Source: Gammaproteobacteria bacterium
Lineage (GTDB): Bacteria; Pseudomonadota; Gammaproteobacteria; CAJXQU01
DNA length: 64,000 bases
Direction of reading: 5' to 3'
Assembly (NCBI GenBank): GCA_965224825.1
Contig: CBDDAG010000001.1
Coordinates: 691,598-755,597 of the forward strand
Position 1 is the first letter of the stretch; the number at the start of each line of letters is the position of its first letter. A program made the translations under genes and the position numbers. The notes beneath the pieces were generated by a model that saw only the letters and a program-made list of their open reading frames with translations, searched no databases and was not told where the DNA came from. Positions 32,112 through 56,597 of this stretch are shown piece after piece.

Positions 32112-34715
32112 TTAACCTATAGCGGCCAATTTCGCCGGAGCTTCAGCTGCTTTTTCAGTATATTCCGGAACTTCATCGAAATTCAGGTAGCGATAGATAT
32201 CATCTGCCATCGGATCGATTTGGCTAGCGTATTCCATATACTCTTCACGCGTCGGAATTTTACCGAGGATTGAGGCCACAGCAGCGAGTTCAGCTGAAGA
32301 CAGGTAAACATCTGCACCATCACCAAGACGATTCGGGAAGTTACGAGTCGAGGTTGAAACAACCGTCGATTTGGCTTCAACACGCGCCTGATTACCCATG
32401 CACAGTGAACAACCCGGCATTTCAGTTCGTGCACCGGCTTTACCGTAGATGCTGTAGTAGCCTTCCGCAGTCAATTGAGCTTCATCCATTTTCGTTGGAG
32501 GAGCGACCCAGAGACGTGTTGGAATTGTCTTGCCATAAGCTTCGAGCAATTTACCCGCCGCACGGAAATGACCAATGTTCGTCATACATGAACCGAGGAA
32601 TACTTCGTCGATCTTCGTACCAGCAACATCAGCCAGCGTTTTCACATCATCCGGATCATTCGGGCAGCACAGAATCGGTTCCTTGATTTCGCTGACGTCG
32701 ATTTCGATCACCGTGTGGTATTCAGCATCGGCATCGGCTTCCATCAATTGTGGATCTTTCAGCCATTCTTCCATTGCTGCTGCACGACGTTCCAGCGTAC
32801 GTGGATCACCGTAATCATTCGCGATCATCCAACGGAGCATGATGATGTTTGATTCCAGATATTCAATGATCGGTTCTTTGTTCAGTTTGATCGAGCAACC
32901 AGCGGCTGATCGTTCGGCAGAAGCATCGGATAATTCAAACGCTTGCTCAACTTTCAGATCAGGCAGGCCTTCGATTTCTAGAACACGGCCAGAGAAGACA
33001 TTTTTCTTGCCCTGTTTCTCAACCGTCAGCAGACCCATTTCGATCGCTTTCAATGGAATTGCATTCACCAGATCACGCAGCGTAATACCCGGCTGCATTT
33101 CACCACTGAAACGAACCAGAACAGATTCCGGCATATCCAGTGGCATAACGCCAGTCGCAGCAGCAAATGCCACCAGACCAGAACCCGCAGGGAAAGAAAT
33201 ACCGATTGGGAAACGTGTATGCGAATCACCACCCGTACCGACAGTATCAGGCAGCAACATGCGGTTTAGCCATGAATGGATAACACCATCGCCCGGACGC
33301 AGGGCAACGCCGCCCCGCGTCATGATGAAATCAGGCAATGTGTGATGCGTGTTCACGTCGATAGGTTTTGGATAAGCAGCCGTGTGACAGAAAGACTGCA
33401 TCGTCAGATCAGCCGAGAAACCAAGACAGGCCAGATCTTTCAGCTCATCACGCGTCATCGGGCCGGTAGTATCTTGCGATCCAACCGTTGTCATTTTAGG
33501 CTCACAATAAGTACCCGGACGAATGCCATCTACGCCACAAGCTTTGCCGACCATTTTCTGTGCCAGCGTGAAACCTTTGCCCGTATCTACAGCAGGAACC
33601 GGTTTACGGAACAGATCAGATTCAGACAAGCCCAGCGCTTCGCGAGCACGCGTTGTCAGGCCTCGACCAATGATCAGAGGGATACGACCACCGGCACGCG
33701 CTTCGTCGAGAATTACGTCTGTTTTCAGACCAAACTCACAGATCGTTTCGCCACTGTCAGCATTCTTCACCAGGCCTTCAAAAGGATAGATGTCGATCAC
33801 ATCACCCATGTTCAGCTTATCTACATCACATTCGATCGGTAATGCGCCAGCATCTTCCAGTGTATTAAAGAAGATCGGAGCGATTTTCGCACCGATGCAA
33901 TAACCACCAGCGCGCTTGTTTGGAATGAACGGAATATCGTCACCCATGTGCCACAGCACAGAGTTAACCGCCGATTTACGCGAAGAACCCGTACCTACTA
34001 CGTCACCCACATAAGCCAGCGGATGACCTTTTTCTTTCAATGTTTCGATCAGTTTGATCGGACCAATCTCACCTTGCTTATCGGGTGTAATACCATCGCG
34101 TTCCATCTTCAACATTGCCAGCGCATGCAGAGGAATATCCGGTCGCGACCATGCATCCGGAGCAGGGGAGAGATCATCGGTATTTGTTTCGCCAGTGACT
34201 TTGAACACCGTAACGGTGATCTTTTCAGCCAATTCAGGTTTGCTGGTGAACCATTCGCCTTCAGCCCATGAAGTGACGATCTGCTTCGCATAATCATTTC
34301 CGGCATCCATTTTTTCTTTCACATCATGGAAAGCATCAAACATCAGCAAGGTGTGCGTCAGCGCTGTAACAGCAGTCGGAGCGATTTCATCATCATCCAA
34401 TGCATCAACCAGCGGCTCGATGTTATAACCACCGAGCATCGTGCCCAGCAATTCAGTCGCTTTAACCTTGTCGATCAAAGGAGAACTTGCGTCCCCTTTC
34501 GTGATCGCAGCCAAAAAGCCAGCCTTCACATAAGCGGCCTGATCAACACCAGCGGGAATACGATTAGTCAGCAGATCAAGAATGAAATCTTCCTCACCCT
34601 TCGGTGGATTCTTCAGTAATTCAACCAGATCAGCGGTTTGTTCAGGCGAAAGCGGCTGAGGAACAACCCCTTCAGCAGCCCGTTCTTCGACATGTTTGCG
34701 ATAAGCTTCAAGCAC
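32112..34715 (-). CDS. acnB: aconitate hydratase B (bifunctional aconitase / 2-methylisocitrate dehydratase)
   Basis: [23 protein letters not shown]-terminus, 867 aa, and Fe-S cysteines in the C-terminal domain. Confidence 0.92.
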
Positions 34716-34919
34716 GATAATTTTCTCCAGAGTTTGTCGGCAACATCCTTGCTGCCAATTGATATTATATTGTTATAAAAGTGAACTCTCTATTATAGAG
34801 GATTTTTGGGGAGAATCGTAGATGAGTTGGGCTGGTTGTGACAAAGAAAAACCTTGTCGTCGCCAATAAATAGTGATTATCTTTATAAGATGTAGGAGCT
34901 TTTTTTATTTACATGAAAT

Positions 34920-36686
34920 TTATTTAACTGAATCGTAATGTGTAATGGCGGCAGAAATACGGTCTAAGAGAGGCTTTAGTCCATTAAAATTAATAGAGCT
35001 TTTCTGTGCTTTAATAACATGTTTTGCAAATGTGATCTTACTCAAATCGGTTTCATCATTTCGTTTATCAACTGTATTAAAGCATTTTCCATTGTGCTTA
35101 ATTAACTGTGTTGCGTTATCAAATAGACATTCTATGTCAGTCTCATCACCTGTTGGGCTTAATGGAGATAAAACAATATACAAATTATGTATTACATGAA
35201 TAAAATCTGCGTTGTGAAAATCATCTTTCTTTAGAGTAGTGGGTACACAGTATGTTGAGTCATTTTTTTTAAGTTTATTAGCTATGGCATCTGAGAAACC
35301 TGAATCATGATCTAACACGATAATAACTGGATATTGAGGTTTTGGTGCTTTATAGAAAACGTAATGTTTATCAAACTTATCAATGAAACTATAAAGATAT
35401 GATGTACCACCATGAAGTTGTAATAAAAATTTCGTGCGCTTTGAATACTCAACAAAACGGATTAGCAGTTTATAAGCACTATCTTTAGTTTTAGCGTCAG
35501 CGAGTTTTGGATAATCTTTTGCTAACTCACTAATTGCAGATTTCAGATAAATATTATCAGTTTTTCCTTCAGTTAGGATTGTTGGCGTGATATTTCCATA
35601 GAAAAATCGGTAGTATAAAAACTTGCTAAAAGTTTTTTCTCTGCCGCTTAGTAAAGGAATTGTATCCTTTCCATGTTTCGCTAAAGCATATACAGGGTTC
35701 AGCGGTGGCTTTTGTCGTAAACGATTAAATAGATCCACTTGGTCGATAAAGTTTAATTGACCTTCTAGTTCGTTAATATTGCCATCCATTTGATCATCGG
35801 CAGCTTTCTTGATAAATGCACCTGTATGAAATAAAGAATGGCATTGTGATTTAGCTGTGCGCCAATATTCTTTTTTTACATTGGGTTTTTTATTTACAAT
35901 TAGGCCTGTTACATCTTGTCTGGAATCTTTGTACTGAATACGTGTTTTGTTATTATTTATAGAAAAACCAGCTCGTATTATTTCGTTTTTTAGTTTTTTA
36001 CCCGCAATATATTCACCGCCCTCTTGTCGCATGATTGGAGGAGGGAAAATAGACTCACGGGTAGAAAAGGTTATATCGTCTGCATATCTTGAATAAGTAC
36101 ACGAATACTTTTTAGCTAATGATGCAAGCCGTATATCAAGTGAATGAGTAATTAGATTTGTTATGACAGGCGAGCAAGGGCTGCCCTGTGGAAGCTTGTT
36201 ATCATAGCAAGCAATTTGAGCGATAACTGTAGCAATATCAGGACTGAGTTCAAAATTCTTATTTTTTATAAAGAAGCCCCTGACCCGACCAAAATTAAAA
36301 CTATCAAAGAAATTGTTAAGGTCAATGTTAAGTACGTTACTTTTATTCAAGTGCATCATTGCATTGGTAAAAATTGAACGTTCTCGAACAAAACCATGTG
36401 CTAAAGTTGATCTCTTGATTTTGGGGTTTGGGTATTTAACTCGGTTAATTTCATCAATACAATCTAGTAATAAATTAGAAAGTCTTGACTGTAAACTTTT
36501 AAGCTGACCTGTGGGAGCGCATATTATGCGTTTATTTCCATTTCGCTTTGGAATTTCAAACTGAACATATTTGTCAGCAGGTTTTAATATGTAGAGGGTA
36601 TAAGTAAGAGCTGAAGGTTTTACTCCTAGTAATTTAGCTAATGCTGATTTAGTAGTAACTTTTTTTAGCGCATCTAACTTATTCAT
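34920..36686 (-). CDS. retron-type reverse transcriptase fused to a C-terminal Toprim domain (Ec67/Eco2-like)
   Basis: RT motifs NIDLNNFFDSF, LPQGSPCSPVITNL and RYADDITFS (YADD). The C-terminus has ILTEGKTD (Toprim Glu) and VIIVLDHDSG (DxD). 588 aa. The AT-rich coding sequence sits directly downstream of an inverted-repeat-bounded ncRNA. Confidence 0.85.
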   Translation of the reverse strand: MNKLDALKKVTTKSALAKLLGVKPSALTYTLYILKPADKYVQFEIPKRNGNKRIICAPTGQLKSLQSRLSNLLLDCIDEINRVKYPNPKIKRSTLAHGFVRERSIFTNAMMHLNKSNVLNIDLNNFFDSFNFGRVRGFFIKNKNFELSPDIATVIAQIACYDNKLPQGSPCSPVITNLITHSLDIRLASLAKKYSCTYSRYADDITFSTRESIFPPPIMRQEGGEYIAGKKLKNEIIRAGFSINNNKTRIQYKDSRQDVTGLIVNKKPNVKKEYWRTAKSQCHSLFHTGAFIKKAADDQMDGNINELEGQLNFIDQVDLFNRLRQKPPLNPVYALAKHGKDTIPLLSGREKTFSKFLYYRFFYGNITPTILTEGKTDNIYLKSAISELAKDYPKLADAKTKDSAYKLLIRFVEYSKRTKFLLQLHGGTSYLYSFIDKFDKHYVFYKAPKPQYPVIIVLDHDSGFSDAIANKLKKNDSTYCVPTTLKKDDFHNADFIHVIHNLYIVLSPLSPTGDETDIECLFDNATQLIKHNGKCFNTVDKRNDETDLSKITFAKHVIKAQKSSINFNGLKPLLDRISAAITHYDSVK

Positions 36687-36715
36687 ATAGCTAAATTAAA
36701 TCTATCAATTGAAGT

Positions 36716-36840
36716 GGCTTATGGGCACTCTTACGCAATACGCACGCTAAACGCTGAAACGTAACACTAGCATAATGGCAATCCAGTCGGACTTTTTTTT
36801 CACTGATCGCGATGCGCGACCCAAAATCTGCCCATAAGCC
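36716..36840 (-). ncRNA. candidate retron msr-msd non-coding RNA (125 nt between a1/a2 inverted repeats)
   Basis: Perfect 12-bp inverted repeats ggcttatgggca (36716-36727) and tgcccataagcc (36829-36840). a2 ends 29 nt upstream of the RT start. An internal GUCGCG-CAU-CGCGA hairpin lies right after a1. Confidence 0.55.
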
Positions 36841-36846
36841 GACATC

Positions 36847-36875
36847 AATGTATCAAGTATTTATGGTGCCATCAA
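36847..36875 (-). promoter_or_regulatory. sigma70-like promoter for the retron ncRNA/RT transcript
   Basis: On the minus strand, TTGATG, a 17-nt spacer, TACATT, then 6 nt to the first G of a1. Confidence 0.4.
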
Positions 36876-36917
36876 ACTAATTTGATATGGAAAAGGGGAC
36901 GCGCCTAGAGTTCAGGC

Positions 36918-36944
36918 ATAAAAAAAGGCATCCGAAGATGCCTT
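36918..36944 (-). terminator. rho-independent terminator of the cupin gene
   Basis: aaggcatc-cgaa-gatgcctt hairpin followed on the minus strand by 7 U. Confidence 0.5.
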
Positions 36945-36951
36945 AATCCAT

Positions 36952-37230
36952 TTAGAAGTGCATGTAGTGCTTTTTCAATGTTTTAGTTACTTGCCAGACG
37001 CTTTTTAAGCCGTCAGGGAAGATAACATAATCACCGGGTACGATAGTTACTGGCTCACCACCATCTGGAGTGACAACAATTTCACCCTCTAAGATGTATG
37101 AGCGTTCGCTTTTGTCGTCAAAATCAAGACGAAACTCAGAGACCGGGCAGTCCCAAATATTCCAACCTGAAACGCCTAATTCTTGTAAACGTGCTTCACT
37201 TAAGTTTTTTTCAATAATAATTTCTGGCAT
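36952..37230 (-). CDS. small cupin-fold protein (DUF861/EutQ-like cupin)
   Basis: 92 aa, with a beta-rich GDYVIFPDG motif typical of single-domain cupins. Confidence 0.55.
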   Translation of the reverse strand: MPEIIIEKNLSEARLQELGVSGWNIWDCPVSEFRLDFDDKSERSYILEGEIVVTPDGGEPVTIVPGDYVIFPDGLKSVWQVTKTLKKHYMHF

Positions 37231-37404
37231 AACTTCCCTACATTGTTAGTAATAATAGATACAAAATCCTGATCGCTTTTAAAGCGAGGAGCCATCACAA
37301 AATGTGAGGCACGGGGATAATAACAGAAGAAAATATCGAGTGGCACTGTAGCTTGGATGAAACGTAGTGGAATCCTTGTTATATCCTCCGGAGAGAATGG
37401 GGCG

Positions 37405-38574
37405 CTATTCTTTTCCTTTGAAAATGTTAGCAACCTGGTTGTATTTCAATGATGTAATCCCATCATCAAACTTAAATCCATCACCCGAGTAGACAAGGTA
37501 GGCTTCTGCTATTTTCGGCGAAAGCTCGACAATTCTTTTTAGTCCTTTTAGCAAAGATGATTTATAGGTCGAGCTGGACTTTATTTCTATTGCCACAAGT
37601 TTTCTTCCTTGTTGATAGAGTATGTCGGCTTCATTGCCATTGCTGTCTCTGTAGAAATACAACTTCGGTAATCTACCTTTGTTGAGCTGTGTTTTTAAGC
37701 ATTCTATGATAATCAAGTTTTCGAATAGATTACCCACTAAAGGATCTCTTGATACTTGCGCAGGGGTTTCTATCCCTAATAAAAAGGAGAGTAAACCAAC
37801 ATCCATAAAATAATATTTGGGTGATTTGATCACACGCTTACCAAAATTTTCGAAATAAGGGTTTAATCTATAGATCACAAAGGAGGCTTCCAGAATTGAG
37901 AGCCAGCTTTTAATCGTTTTTGCAGAAACACCGACATCATTTGCCAACGATGTATAGTCCATTAGCTGTCCAATCCGCCCGGCCAGTAAGTTCATAAATT
38001 TTTCAAATAATGAAAAATCTTTCAGGTTGATGAGCTGCCGAACATCTCTTTCTACATATGTTTGATAATAGTTTGAATAGGCCTGAGTTGGTCGTTGGTT
38101 TTGATCATAAATGCGCGGCAGGAAGCCTTGATAAATATAATCCTGAGGTTGTTCAAATTCGATATTAGCTTCGGTTAACTCTGCAATTGAAAAGGGTAAC
38201 AAGTTAAGAATACTTGTTCTGCCAGCCAAAGACTGGGTGATGGCTTCTCGTAATTCCAGTTGGTGAGAGCCTGTGAGTACAAATTGTCCATTCGTTTGCT
38301 GCTCATCAACAATTGTCTGGATGTAACTTATTAGATCAGGAACTCGTTGAATTTCATCTAATATGACGTTTGACTTGAACTGAGCCAGAAATGCTTTTGG
38401 ATCATCAGTAGCAAACTGGCGTGTTTCGGGATTTTCAAGGTTGCTGTATTGGTAAGATGGTAATGCCATTTTTGCCAATGTCGTTTTCCCAGCTTGCCTG
38501 GGGCCTAAAAGAGTAACAACAGGATATTCATCCAGTTGTTTGTGGAATTCTGATTCTATGTGTCTTTTGATCAT
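37405..38574 (-). CDS. AAA+ ATPase with a C-terminal PD-(D/E)xK-like DUF4143 domain (COG1373 family)
   Basis: Walker A GPRQAGKTT, Walker B VILDEIQ, and a C-terminal D...EADIL...VAIEIKSS nuclease-like motif. Confidence 0.8.
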   Translation of the reverse strand: MIKRHIESEFHKQLDEYPVVTLLGPRQAGKTTLAKMALPSYQYSNLENPETRQFATDDPKAFLAQFKSNVILDEIQRVPDLISYIQTIVDEQQTNGQFVLTGSHQLELREAITQSLAGRTSILNLLPFSIAELTEANIEFEQPQDYIYQGFLPRIYDQNQRPTQAYSNYYQTYVERDVRQLINLKDFSLFEKFMNLLAGRIGQLMDYTSLANDVGVSAKTIKSWLSILEASFVIYRLNPYFENFGKRVIKSPKYYFMDVGLLSFLLGIETPAQVSRDPLVGNLFENLIIIECLKTQLNKGRLPKLYFYRDSNGNEADILYQQGRKLVAIEIKSSSTYKSSLLKGLKRIVELSPKIAEAYLVYSGDGFKFDDGITSLKYNQVANIFKGKE

Positions 38575-38655
38575 ATAAAGCAGTTTAAATTATGTTATAT
38601 GGCATATCAAGTATGATATTGCATAACTATGACCAGGTGGGAGGAAGGAAAATTA

Positions 38656-39030
38656 CTATTTAATACCAGTACTTTCTTCGTAATATACAATCAAGATCAA
38701 AACAAGAATAGGAATATTCTTAGTTAACGGACCAAAAGGATGTAGCCAGAACTCAGGACTAATGATTGTCAGAATTATCGTGTAGGAAATAATAATGATG
38801 ATCTGGATCAAGCAACAGGTTTTGATCCATCTTGAAGAGAGTAGCCAGATCCCCAAAATAATATCTGCGAGGGTTCCTACGATGATCAATCCCGTTGACA
38901 TGTTTCCAGTAATGTCTGCCTTCGCTAGGATTTCGTAACCCAGTTCGGGCGCAAGAAATAATGATGTGATCCCTGTGAAGATCCATAGGCCGGATAATGC
39001 TAATTTGGCCAGTAAAATAAAATTATTCAT
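38656..39030 (-). CDS. small 4-TM membrane protein (DoxX-like?)
   Basis: 124 aa, hydrophobic, overlapping the upstream DUF2269 gene's stop. Confidence 0.4.
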   Translation of the reverse strand: MNNFILLAKLALSGLWIFTGITSLFLAPELGYEILAKADITGNMSTGLIIVGTLADIILGIWLLSSRWIKTCCLIQIIIIISYTIILTIISPEFWLHPFGPLTKNIPILVLILIVYYEESTGIK

Positions 39031-54017: not shown

Positions 54018-56597
54018 ATGGCATTAAGCTCAACAAAAACTATCGAAAAACTACTCGGGATCTGGCTGAAAAATGTGCAGAAACATGCCTGGTTATTTTT
54101 GTTGTTTGCACTGATCTTTACAGTCTTTAATGTCATTTATATCAAAGACAATCTAGGCATTAATACTGACACCACTGATATGCTGTCAGAGAAGCTGGAT
54201 TGGCGTAAAAAAGATATTCAGTTTAGAAAATCCTTTCCGCAATTTTCAGATAATATAGCGATCGTCATAGAATCAGAAACACCCGATCAAACTCAAGATG
54301 TAACGATAGCATTAACCGAACGATTAGAAAAAGAACAACAATTTTTCCCTTCTGTTTTTCAGATCAAAAACTCAAAATTTTTCCGTCAAAATAGTTTGCT
54401 CTATCTAGACACAGATGAACTGGAAGAACTTGCTGATAATTTAGCCGCAGTGCAACCTTTTCTGGGCAAGCTTCAACAAGATCAAAATATTCGTGGCCTG
54501 TTTTCTGTTCTGACTCAGGCACTAAAAGAACAAGATCAAGAAGTCGATCTGGATCATATTTTTACAGCCATCGATCAAACAATTTCAGCACATCTGCAAG
54601 GGAGGAGCCAACGCATGTCGTGGCACGAATTGATGAGTGGCCGGGAGAGCACGATGGATGATCGACGTTCTGTGATCACTGTACAACCGAAACTCGATTA
54701 TTCAGAATTGTTGCCTGGTGAACCTGCGGTCAGAATGTTGCGATCAATCATCAAAAGCATCAGGGTAGAGGAAGATTATGGTGATGTACAAATTCGGCTC
54801 ACTGGTGACGTGGCGCTTGCCTACGAAGAACTCGATAGTGTCGCGCGTGGTGCACAAGCAGGCGGACTGATTGCCTTGTTTGCCGTTGCCATCGTTCTGA
54901 TCGTAGGACTCCGATCATTGTCTTTGGTTTTTGCCACATTAACCACCCTGATTATTGGCCTGATCTGGACTGCCGCATTTGCGACCGTTGCGATAGGTGA
55001 ATTGAACATGATCTCCATCGCCTTCATGGTGCTCTATATCGGTCTCGGTGGTGATTTTGCCGTTCACCTTTGCCTGCGGTACAGAGAACAGAGGCAGGAT
55101 CTGGATCAAGAGTTGGCTGTAAAAGAAAGTGGAAAACATATCGGAGTATCGCTACTACTTTGTGCCTTCACCACAGCGATTGGTTTTTATGCCTTTTTAC
55201 CGACGGCTTATTCTGGCGTTGCAGAACTAGGGTTGATCTCAGGTACCGGCATGTTTATTAGTTTGTTTCTTAGCTTGACCGTGTTGCCCGCATTGCTCAC
55301 ATTATTACCTTATAAATCCAGAATACGATCCGATAACTCCTCGAATTGGTTCAGCGGTATTCAAAACCTTCCTTTTACACATGCAAAAACGATCATACTT
55401 GTGTCAACCATTATTGGCTTGCTCAGTATCGTCACATTGCCAAAAATTAAGTTTGATCATAACCCTGTGCATCTAATGGATCCGGAAACTGAATCCGTAC
55501 AGACCTATAAGGATCTGCTTGCAGAAAGTTCACGATCACCACTTTCGATTAATCTTGTTGAAACAGAAATCGGCGATCTCCCGGAACAGCTTGAAGCACT
55601 AGGTTCAGTTGATGAAGTGATCACTATAAATAGTTTTATTCCATCAGATCAAAAAAATAAACTGGCCATTATTGAAGATCTTTCACTCGTTATGAGTATG
55701 CCAATAAGCGATCCTGATCAAAAAACTATTTCAGATCAGGATCGTTTATTGGCGATCAACGAGTTTTCTGAAATTCTAAAAACCAGAAAACCAGATCAGA
55801 AACTTAATAAAACATTGGAGAAGTTGCTTAGCCAAAATACAAAAAAACTGCATTTTTTGGATCAAAAGTTGATCGCCTCATTACCCGGTCGCTTACGCAA
55901 TCTTGACGAAAGCCTCAATGCGGAAGAGATCTCCAAAGGATCACTCCCTTCTGATTTACGTGATCGTTGGCAATCTAATGAAAACTATCGCATCGAAGTC
56001 TTTTCTAAAAACGATCTGAATGACAATAAAATCCTGGAATCATTCGTCAATGATGTTCGCAAGATTGCACCTGATGCCATTGGCGTACCCATCATTAATG
56101 TGGATGCAAGTAGCGCCGTGGTCAGAGCATTTCAGCAGGCCCTAGGTCTTGCTCTTGTCGTGATTATAATTTTGTTGTGGTTATTGCTAGATAAAAAAAG
56201 TGATAGCTTTCTAATATTGGCAACATTGATCCTGGCTGGATTAATGACCTGTGCTGTTAGTGTTTTACTGGGGATTCAATTCAACTTTGCTAACGTTATT
56301 GCTCTGCCATTGCTGCTGGGGATCGGTGTCGATAGTTCGATACATATTTTACATCGTTATCGATCAGCATTGCCTGAAAGTGACTCATTATTAAACACCA
56401 GTACTGCCCGAGCTGTGTTGTTCAGTGCTCTGACGACAACCTGTAGCTTCGGTAACCTGGCTATTTCACCTCATCGGGGTACTGCCAGTATGGGAGTATT
56501 ATTGACGCTTGGTTTGATTTTGACCTTGTTTGTAACGTTGATCGTTTTGCCCGCATTGCTCACTCTGACGGATAATTCAGATAGAATGAAATCATAA
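54018..56597 (+). CDS. hpnN: hopanoid-associated RND/MMPL-type transporter HpnN
   Basis: ~860 aa with two 6-TM bundles and two periplasmic domains, between hpnH and hpnO. Start placed at MALSSTKT (54018). Confidence 0.8.
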   Translation: MALSSTKTIEKLLGIWLKNVQKHAWLFLLFALIFTVFNVIYIKDNLGINTDTTDMLSEKLDWRKKDIQFRKSFPQFSDNIAIVIESETPDQTQDVTIALTERLEKEQQFFPSVFQIKNSKFFRQNSLLYLDTDELEELADNLAAVQPFLGKLQQDQNIRGLFSVLTQALKEQDQEVDLDHIFTAIDQTISAHLQGRSQRMSWHELMSGRESTMDDRRSVITVQPKLDYSELLPGEPAVRMLRSIIKSIRVEEDYGDVQIRLTGDVALAYEELDSVARGAQAGGLIALFAVAIVLIVGLRSLSLVFATLTTLIIGLIWTAAFATVAIGELNMISIAFMVLYIGLGGDFAVHLCLRYREQRQDLDQELAVKESGKHIGVSLLLCAFTTAIGFYAFLPTAYSGVAELGLISGTGMFISLFLSLTVLPALLTLLPYKSRIRSDNSSNWFSGIQNLPFTHAKTIILVSTIIGLLSIVTLPKIKFDHNPVHLMDPETESVQTYKDLLAESSRSPLSINLVETEIGDLPEQLEALGSVDEVITINSFIPSDQKNKLAIIEDLSLVMSMPISDPDQKTISDQDRLLAINEFSEILKTRKPDQKLNKTLEKLLSQNTKKLHFLDQKLIASLPGRLRNLDESLNAEEISKGSLPSDLRDRWQSNENYRIEVFSKNDLNDNKILESFVNDVRKIAPDAIGVPIINVDASSAVVRAFQQALGLALVVIIILLWLLLDKKSDSFLILATLILAGLMTCAVSVLLGIQFNFANVIALPLLLGIGVDSSIHILHRYRSALPESDSLLNTSTARAVLFSALTTTCSFGNLAISPHRGTASMGVLLTLGLILTLFVTLIVLPALLTLTDNSDRMKS

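Follow-up and report, generated by a model that had tools for sequence, protein, structure and literature searches.

A solitary PDC-S01 ATPase-nuclease cassette with a palindromic, probably leaderless promoter lies near a strain-variable slot occupied by a retron

In a 64,000-nt stretch of DNA from a Gammaproteobacteria bacterium (assembly GCA_965224825.1, contig CBDDAG010000001.1, positions 691,598 to 755,597; hereafter the window, with coordinates counted from its first letter), genes for a 389-aa ATPase-nuclease and a 92-aa cupin lie immediately upstream of an Ec67-type retron. An earlier reading of the letters without database searches (the sequence-only reading) had proposed the pair as a possible uncharacterised defence module. 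Our analysis favours, with a probability of about 0.6, two unrelated, separately bounded single-gene units beside a variable slot, in which the ATPase would be a stand-alone member of the candidate defence family PDC-S01, the cupin would be of housekeeping type, and neither would work with the retron or with the other. Judged from where homology to other loci begins and ends, the region consists of three units, each apparently independent: the ATPase cassette (37400–38625), the cupin unit (36920–37326) and the strain-variable slot (34848–36916), all on the minus strand. The palindromic promoter of the cassette, predicted to be leaderless, is the only element that is new for PDC-S01, and it is not mentioned in the PDC-S01 literature consulted.

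The coding sequence (CDS) of the ATPase (37405..38574, minus strand) specifies AAA+, winged helix-turn-helix and PD-(D/E)xK domains. As the sequence-only reading had stated, it is an AAA+/DUF4143 protein: Pfam detected AAA_14 (E 5.1e-28, residues 18–133) and DUF4143 (E 3.3e-49, residues 175–334) joined in one polypeptide, and the motifs quoted in that reading were located at residues 24–32 (GPRQAGKTT), 314–319 (NEADIL) and 327–334 (VAIEIKSS). PADLOC identified the protein as PDC-S01 through model PDLC04790 (E 1.6e-99), with residues 1–374 aligned to positions 11–410 of the 422-position profile, and six further PDC-S01 models matched it as well. When compared with PDC-S01 as described (AAA_14 plus DUF4143; COG1373), the ATPase is alike in its near full-length match to the profile hidden Markov model, in its two-domain architecture and in its single-gene organisation, and nothing separates the two; on its sequence, it is a new member of this known candidate family. 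The label 'uncharacterised' does not hold, since the family has already been catalogued and is reported to rank fourth in frequency among the candidate systems of prokaryotes, its validation being pending (PMC12988326). At E<=1e-3, we counted 23,150 family members among representatives of 50%-identity clusters.

Conservation was assessed across 26 homologues. In the Walker A motif (GPRQAGKTT; 38479..38505, minus strand) G24, R26, Q27, G29, T31 and T32 are invariant and K30 is kept in at least 90% of the proteins, while D73 and E74 are invariant in Walker B (VILDEIQ, residues 70–76; 38347..38367, minus strand). The three features by which AAA+ membership is judged, Walker A, Walker B and the AAA+ fold, are all present. 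A winged-helix DNA-binding segment is predicted at residues 209–232 (...SAKTIKSWLSILEASF; 37879..37950, minus strand), with W224–E229 invariant; around it, the AlphaFold2 model places helices at 207–214 and 218–231, followed by strands at 234–239 and 253–256. The PD-(D/E)xK nuclease core, E285, D317 and E330-x-K332 (37573..37728, minus strand), is complete in the window protein; E285, E330 and K332 are invariant and D317 is found in at least 90% of the homologues.

The N-terminal AAA+ domain resembles above all the archaeal 'Walker-type ATPase' and Orc/Cdc6 group. The members compared, SSO1545 (2fna), PABY2304 (2qen) and Orc1/Cdc6, share only 13–21% identity with the window ATPase and, unlike it, have no nuclease domain. 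A sequence search of the PDB with the ATPase gave chance matches only, and a Pfam match to nSTAND3 fell below threshold. The STAND proteins Avs4 and Avs5 differ from the window protein, which is much smaller (389 aa), has no tetratricopeptide or sensor repeats and carries an AAA+ rather than an NB-ARC domain. DUF4143 was assigned to the PD-(D/E)xK superfamily in 2012 (PMC3424549), and the C-terminal domain here is predicted to be a Can2/Card1-like nuclease of this type with all predicted catalytic residues intact. In contrast with Can2, Card1 and Cdn1, which pair a CARF domain with the nuclease, the window ATPase has no CARF domain and couples the nuclease to an AAA+ domain and a winged helix instead; its activator would accordingly not be cyclic oligoadenylate, and nucleotide or oligomerisation would take that place.

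The limits of the ATPase cassette are sharp. The 1.23-kb unit, comprising the promoter and palindrome plus the 389-aa open reading frame (ORF), shows 82% nucleotide identity to comparison loci L007–L010 over exactly 38625–37400 (minus strand), a span that takes in 51 nt ahead of the ATG and 5 nt beyond the stop codon, and homology to L011–L013 (69% identity) begins at 38626. No conserved element or inverted repeat was found 3' of the stop codon in 81 loci. A second PDC-S01 copy was sought inside the window and none was found; another copy (L007:10001-11170; 91% amino acid and 82% nucleotide identity) has rpsT on one side and proB-obgE on the other and stands alone there, on a contig of 585 kb. 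This copy is probably a second, diverged one in the same genome as the window, because the tetranucleotide correlation between its contig and the window is r = 0.976 (0.972 between the halves of the window, at most 0.90 for every other locus) and both genes occur in the same four samples. Another copy, 76% identical, is flanked by an acyl-CoA dehydrogenase operon and a FUSC efflux gene. Elsewhere, the PDC-S01 copies L031 and L032, about 100 kb apart on OY843767.1, are near-identical, and genes downstream of them are duplicated too, one of these coding for a protein of ~3060 aa; in some other genomes divergent PDC-S01 paralogues adjoin each other (L025, L087 and L096 belong to these multi-copy loci).

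The second unit (36920..37326, minus strand) contains an upstream region, the cupin ORF and a terminator, and is 86% identical in nucleotide sequence to L017–L019 over exactly that span; relative to L014–L016, identity is 91% across 37266–36931, and the two groups of loci are both found in unrelated contexts. Its 92-aa product (CDS 36952..37230, minus strand) is a cupin, as the sequence-only reading had recognised, and belongs to the TM1112/DUF861 type: Pfam Cupin_3 matched at E 9.3e-24 (profile positions 2–74 of 74), and the protein resembles TM1112 (PDB 1lkn and 1o5u) over its full length (1lkn, E 5.6e-17, residues 3–91 on chain positions 2–88), with no link to defence or to the ATPase found for cupins of this type. 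The HxH of the metal-cupin motif G(x)5HxH(x)3-4E is absent from the 92 residues, which include only two histidines, both in the C-terminal HYMHF. NCBIfam gave no model for either the cupin or the ATPase. The terminator scan placed an intrinsic-terminator-like hairpin, AAGGCATC-TTCG-GATGCCTT followed by T7, at 36925..36944 (minus strand). Relatives of the cupin at 79–96% identity are named Methylophaga or Piscirickettsiaceae, which hints at a Methylophaga-like source for the window, and in the three other contexts obtained the gene follows rpoD (L014), lies between genes for a DUF2986 protein and an FAD-dependent protein (L017), or lies between an HD-domain gene and ackA (L020). The cupin is probably a small, lineage-conserved housekeeping gene that stands next to the ATPase by accident. 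Residues 4–76 also align with plant pTAC18/PAP13 (E 2e-8), a subunit of the plastid-encoded RNA polymerase complex.

The third unit is the slot (34848..36916, minus strand), which carries the retron cassette as its cargo here. The retron comprises an Ec67-type RT-Toprim CDS, in which the reverse transcriptase (RT) is fused to Toprim (34920-36686, minus strand; NCBIfam retron_Ec67_fus, E 1.3e-227; also called by PADLOC), and a non-coding RNA (ncRNA) with a1/a2 repeats GGCTTATGGGCA and TGCCCATAAGCC at 36829-36840 and 36716-36727. Sister contigs from the same metagenomes were found by exact-protein look-up. Two of them, L002 and L006, match the window. In two others, L001 and L185, DoxX_3 and the ATPase are identical to those of the window and the cupin is near-identical (99% at the amino acid level), while homology breaks at 36917 and 36911 and resumes at 34858 and 34849, respectively. 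L001 carries no retron: its slot between the cupin terminator and the acnB promoter (L001:5875-6966) contains a 255-aa Spond_N gene on the opposite strand. In the slot of L185 (L185:3566-4773) a 54-aa ORF and a 274-aa Lcl_C-like gene replace the retron. Neither the Spond_N nor the Lcl_C-like cargo has a PADLOC match. All three alleles share the left junction, directly after ...GCCTTTTTTTATG (window 36917/36911), and the right one at ~34849–34858. Because three alleles in one population use the same junctions, the retron appears as one of several cargos in a strain-variable slot, with the ATPase and the cupin outside it.

These boundaries bear on two partnerships that the gene order suggests. 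The sequence-only reading had advanced a cupin and ATPase module; in such a module the cupin might be a sensor or regulator. The two genes are indeed adjacent on the same strand, 174 bp apart, and the pair, like the hairpin that ends it, is kept in all three alleles of the population. That reading had also given the two genes separate terminators, which is correct for the cupin; between the stop codon of the ATPase and the start of the cupin the scan detected none on the coding strand, an absence that counts in favour of a module. A cupin is nevertheless missing from all 80 of the best ATPase loci, and neither the ATPase nor any defence gene occurs in the three other cupin contexts. Nucleotide homology of the two units ends at 37400 and 37326, and the 73 nt between them (37327..37399, minus strand) form a lineage-specific spacer that matches none of the other ATPase or cupin loci; the two genes are for these reasons most simply taken as independent. 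The probable second ATPase copy of the same genome has no cupin either, and the cupin has no PADLOC match, so a two-gene defence module is very improbable. Still harder to credit is a role for the ATPase-nuclease as accessory or second effector of the retron, although it and the retron ncRNA share a strand and are ~0.7 kb apart. ATPase or nuclease effectors do occur in some retron types. In this retron, in contrast, the RT already carries a Toprim effector fused to it and covers the full length of the single-gene type I-C models, the cupin and its terminator separate the retron from the ATPase, and no RT family is among the 25 families most frequently matched by the 145 immediate ATPase neighbours. 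Since L001 and L185 keep the ATPase, without RT and ncRNA, while carrying other genes in the slot, the two do not co-occur obligately and the ATPase is not part of the retron, as the sequence-only reading had expected; a suspected retron companion is thereby removed.

To describe the surroundings of the family, we took the best 80 ATPase loci in species-representative genomes, which are 62–78% identical to the window protein. They come from Gammaproteobacteria, Burkholderiales, Verrucomicrobiota, Bdellovibrionota, Lentisphaerota, Kiritimatiellota and a metagenome-assembled genome of Aquificaceae, and extensive horizontal transfer is implied because relatives at this level of identity span several phyla. 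The largest cluster of shared neighbours, a two-component system, occurs at 9 of the 80 loci; there is no conserved partner, and with no cluster common to more than nine loci and homology confined to the gene and its 51 upstream nucleotides, the ATPase has the single-gene character of PDC-S01. The cassette seems to spread horizontally and to settle, usually alone, among housekeeping genes. Relatives were found on 401 of 72,556 plasmids, all below 60% identity, in 14 of 50,697 phage records, nearly all of them unannotated 'Bacteriophage sp.' metagenome records, and as two distant loci among 2.9 million viral contigs. On plasmid pSP2_2 of Runella sp. SP2, a 45%-identical homologue (L186, 7111-8253) has as neighbours a WYL-domain gene and a CRISPR-associated gene of the TM1802 family; the setting belongs to the minority that are clearly of defence type.

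Neighbouring ORFs were called by a crude longest-ORF rule and tallied at family level, so that the counts are approximate. About 17 of 145 immediate neighbours match specific defence or toxin-antitoxin (TA) models, namely four PDC-S01 paralogues, SoFic, PDC-S04, PDC-S24, PDC-S69, AbiEii, LmuA, PDC-S03 and a ThsA-like protein, to which Pfam adds TIR, PIN and Phd domains. Among second neighbours the figure is about 9 of 133, including a UG17 RT, an HNH restriction enzyme, IetA, AbiEi, NsnB, Cas1 and AriA. As a control, 126 acnB neighbours called alike gave generic matches only (phospholipase, MotB-like, helicase-like and PDC-S07) and no specific defence or TA match. The claim of the sequence-only reading that the family is defence-associated is borne out by its PADLOC status as a candidate and by these ~10% of neighbours, against none such in the controls. 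The check on gene neighbourhoods that it had proposed gave a mixed answer: the defence association is minor but real, and solitary placement among housekeeping genes, the pattern that was to speak against a defence role, is dominant nonetheless. PDC families were defined by 'guilt by embedding' in BREX, DISARM and type I restriction-modification loci, and a weaker association with other defence genes was noted for them (10.1101/2024.01.29.577857).

The control region of the cassette was examined in an alignment (A4) of 79 homologous loci. Their consensus before the ATG is TTTATGTAATAnnGGACTTGAACTCCnnnnTTnCATAnnnTAnnnT-(6 nt)-ATG, and the family promoter consists of a TTGAAC −35 hexamer, a 17-nt spacer and a TAnnnT −10 hexamer. 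A strict TTGnnn-17-TAnnnT is present in 50 of the 79 homologues, compared with 1.5% of shuffles; among these 50 the spacer is 17 nt in 49, and 33 have 6 nt between the −10 hexamer and the ATG. The window copy retains an intact promoter (TTGATA-17-TAAACT, 38610–38582), the promoter scan placing the −35-like TTGATA at 38605..38610, in the centre of a palindrome, and the −10-like TAAACT at 38582..38587, ending 7 nt before the ATG (both minus strand). As the −10 hexamer ends 6–7 nt before the ATG and Shine-Dalgarno-like 4-mers are rare upstream of it (5 of 79 homologues), the mRNA of this PDC-S01 subfamily is very probably leaderless.

The palindrome is an operator-like element spanning −51 to −16 (38590..38625, minus strand), with the family consensus TATGTAATAnnGGACT-TGA-ACTCCnnnnTTnCATA, and the transferable homology block has its 5' edge at the left arm. 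Across the 16-bp arms, pairing extends to 81.8% of cells. Shuffles give 69.8%, with none of 500 attaining the observed figure, and sliding the partners gives 30–49%; double-sided changes number 196, where 95 were expected, and in some loci the arms extend to 21–28 bp. Palindromes with TGTAA/TTACA boxes also precede the 45%-identical plasmid homologues in Runella and Allochromatium. Upstream of a Wolbachia homologue the palindrome is without these boxes, and upstream of a Thermus homologue no such palindrome was found. A reading of the element as attC-like or as a single-strand promoter was rejected, the −35 hexamer lying in the loop and not the stem and no core-site-like ends being conserved. 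A correspondence between operator class and winged-helix variant, both distinct in the Burkholderiales-type L063–L066, is confounded by phylogeny and was not used as evidence.

In the explanation that we favour, the ATPase gene would be transcribed from its own sigma-70 promoter as a leaderless mRNA, and the winged helix of the protein would bind the palindrome around the −35 hexamer and repress its own gene. ATP-dependent assembly on a nucleic-acid cue would then license the Can2-like nuclease to cut DNA, and the outcome may be a one-protein immunity or abortive-infection function. Several points weigh against this proposal. The AlphaFold2 model is of low confidence in its centre, with a pLDDT (predicted local distance difference test) of 51–65 for residues 140–300. 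The suggested autorepression is drawn solely from geometry, the window has a degenerate palindrome in which 9 of the 16 pairs are Watson-Crick, and the long arms, together with covariation at non-conserved positions, appear to exceed the needs of a simple operator. More than 80% of the relatives are solitary among housekeeping genes. In the one published phage test, a PDC-S01 homologue was exposed to T7, T5 and T4 in E. coli B, and the four candidates reported to protect did not include it (10.1101/2024.09.26.614923); our literature search found no demonstrated defence by any PDC-S01 member.

The absence of reported protection in that test also suits another possible, though somewhat unlikely, explanation, namely that the PDC-S01 gene is non-immune, either a selfish single-gene element with addiction- or homing-like behaviour or a protein of DNA transactions or regulation, and that its defence label is guilt by association. 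The solitary occurrence of the cassette in housekeeping contexts, its sharp bounds, with a long palindrome at the start and the stop codon at the end, its presence across phyla at 62–78% identity and the several copies per genome are all consistent with this. The cassette has, on the other hand, no terminal repeats, integrase or conserved 3' end in the 81 loci. No uninterrupted locus turned up for comparison either: a metagenome scan with the saccharopine-dehydrogenase-like neighbour returned no relatives, and the 80 loci obtained with the AcnB N-terminus all lack the order from DoxX_3 to acnB (the closest, L103, is rearranged) and do not offer an empty site for the ATPase or the cupin, so that no empty-site or target-site evidence came from this comparison. 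The enrichment of defence and TA genes beside the ATPase over the controls, and the definition of PDC families from instances inside known defence loci, likewise speak against the non-immune explanation. In its strong form the alternative makes PDC-S01 an autonomous selfish element, the palindrome serving both as operator and as the recognition or cut site of the nuclease and driving spread or retention. This form is improbable; if true, it would explain the cross-phylum transfer without flanking DNA, the several diverged copies per genome and the hairpin-preserving covariation. A selfish reading keeps some probability because the immune function that we favour does not account for the covariation, the very long arms and the cross-phylum movement of the bare cassette.

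Survey counts that list PDC-S01 as an abundant 'defence system' are to be read against a family that is mostly solitary, is near-absent from viruses and was not reported to protect in the one published phage test found. The palindrome-embedded, putatively leaderless promoter provides a concrete starting point on the autoregulation of PDC-S01, its inducing signal and its DNA target.

In the wider region, the minus strand reads 5' to 3' GlcD-like gene, DUF6231, saccharopine-dehydrogenase-like gene, DUF2269, DoxX_3 (38656-39030), ATPase, cupin, terminator, retron ncRNA, RT-Toprim and acnB (32112-34715), and nearby ORFs are of housekeeping type (AcnB, GlcD-like, RNase G-like). The AT-rich context noted by the sequence-only reading is clear for the retron cassette (GC content 0.344, against 0.424 for the window) and only mild for the ATPase (0.38) and cupin (0.40) units. 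Its remark that no tRNA marks the island boundaries extends to the entire 64-kb window, where none was found, and an Rfam scan of 30–45 kb gave nothing relevant. In L001, which has 2x coverage, DUF2269 is split into ORFs of 86 and 72 aa (L001:3289-3764) and the GlcD-like gene is in three fragments, probably through faulty assembly; true pseudogenes are less likely. In L103, the closest acnB relative (90% amino acid identity), the region upstream of acnB (L103:1-4155) matches window positions 54771-56575, some 20 kb away, which marks the upstream boundary of acnB as a synteny breakpoint between related genomes.

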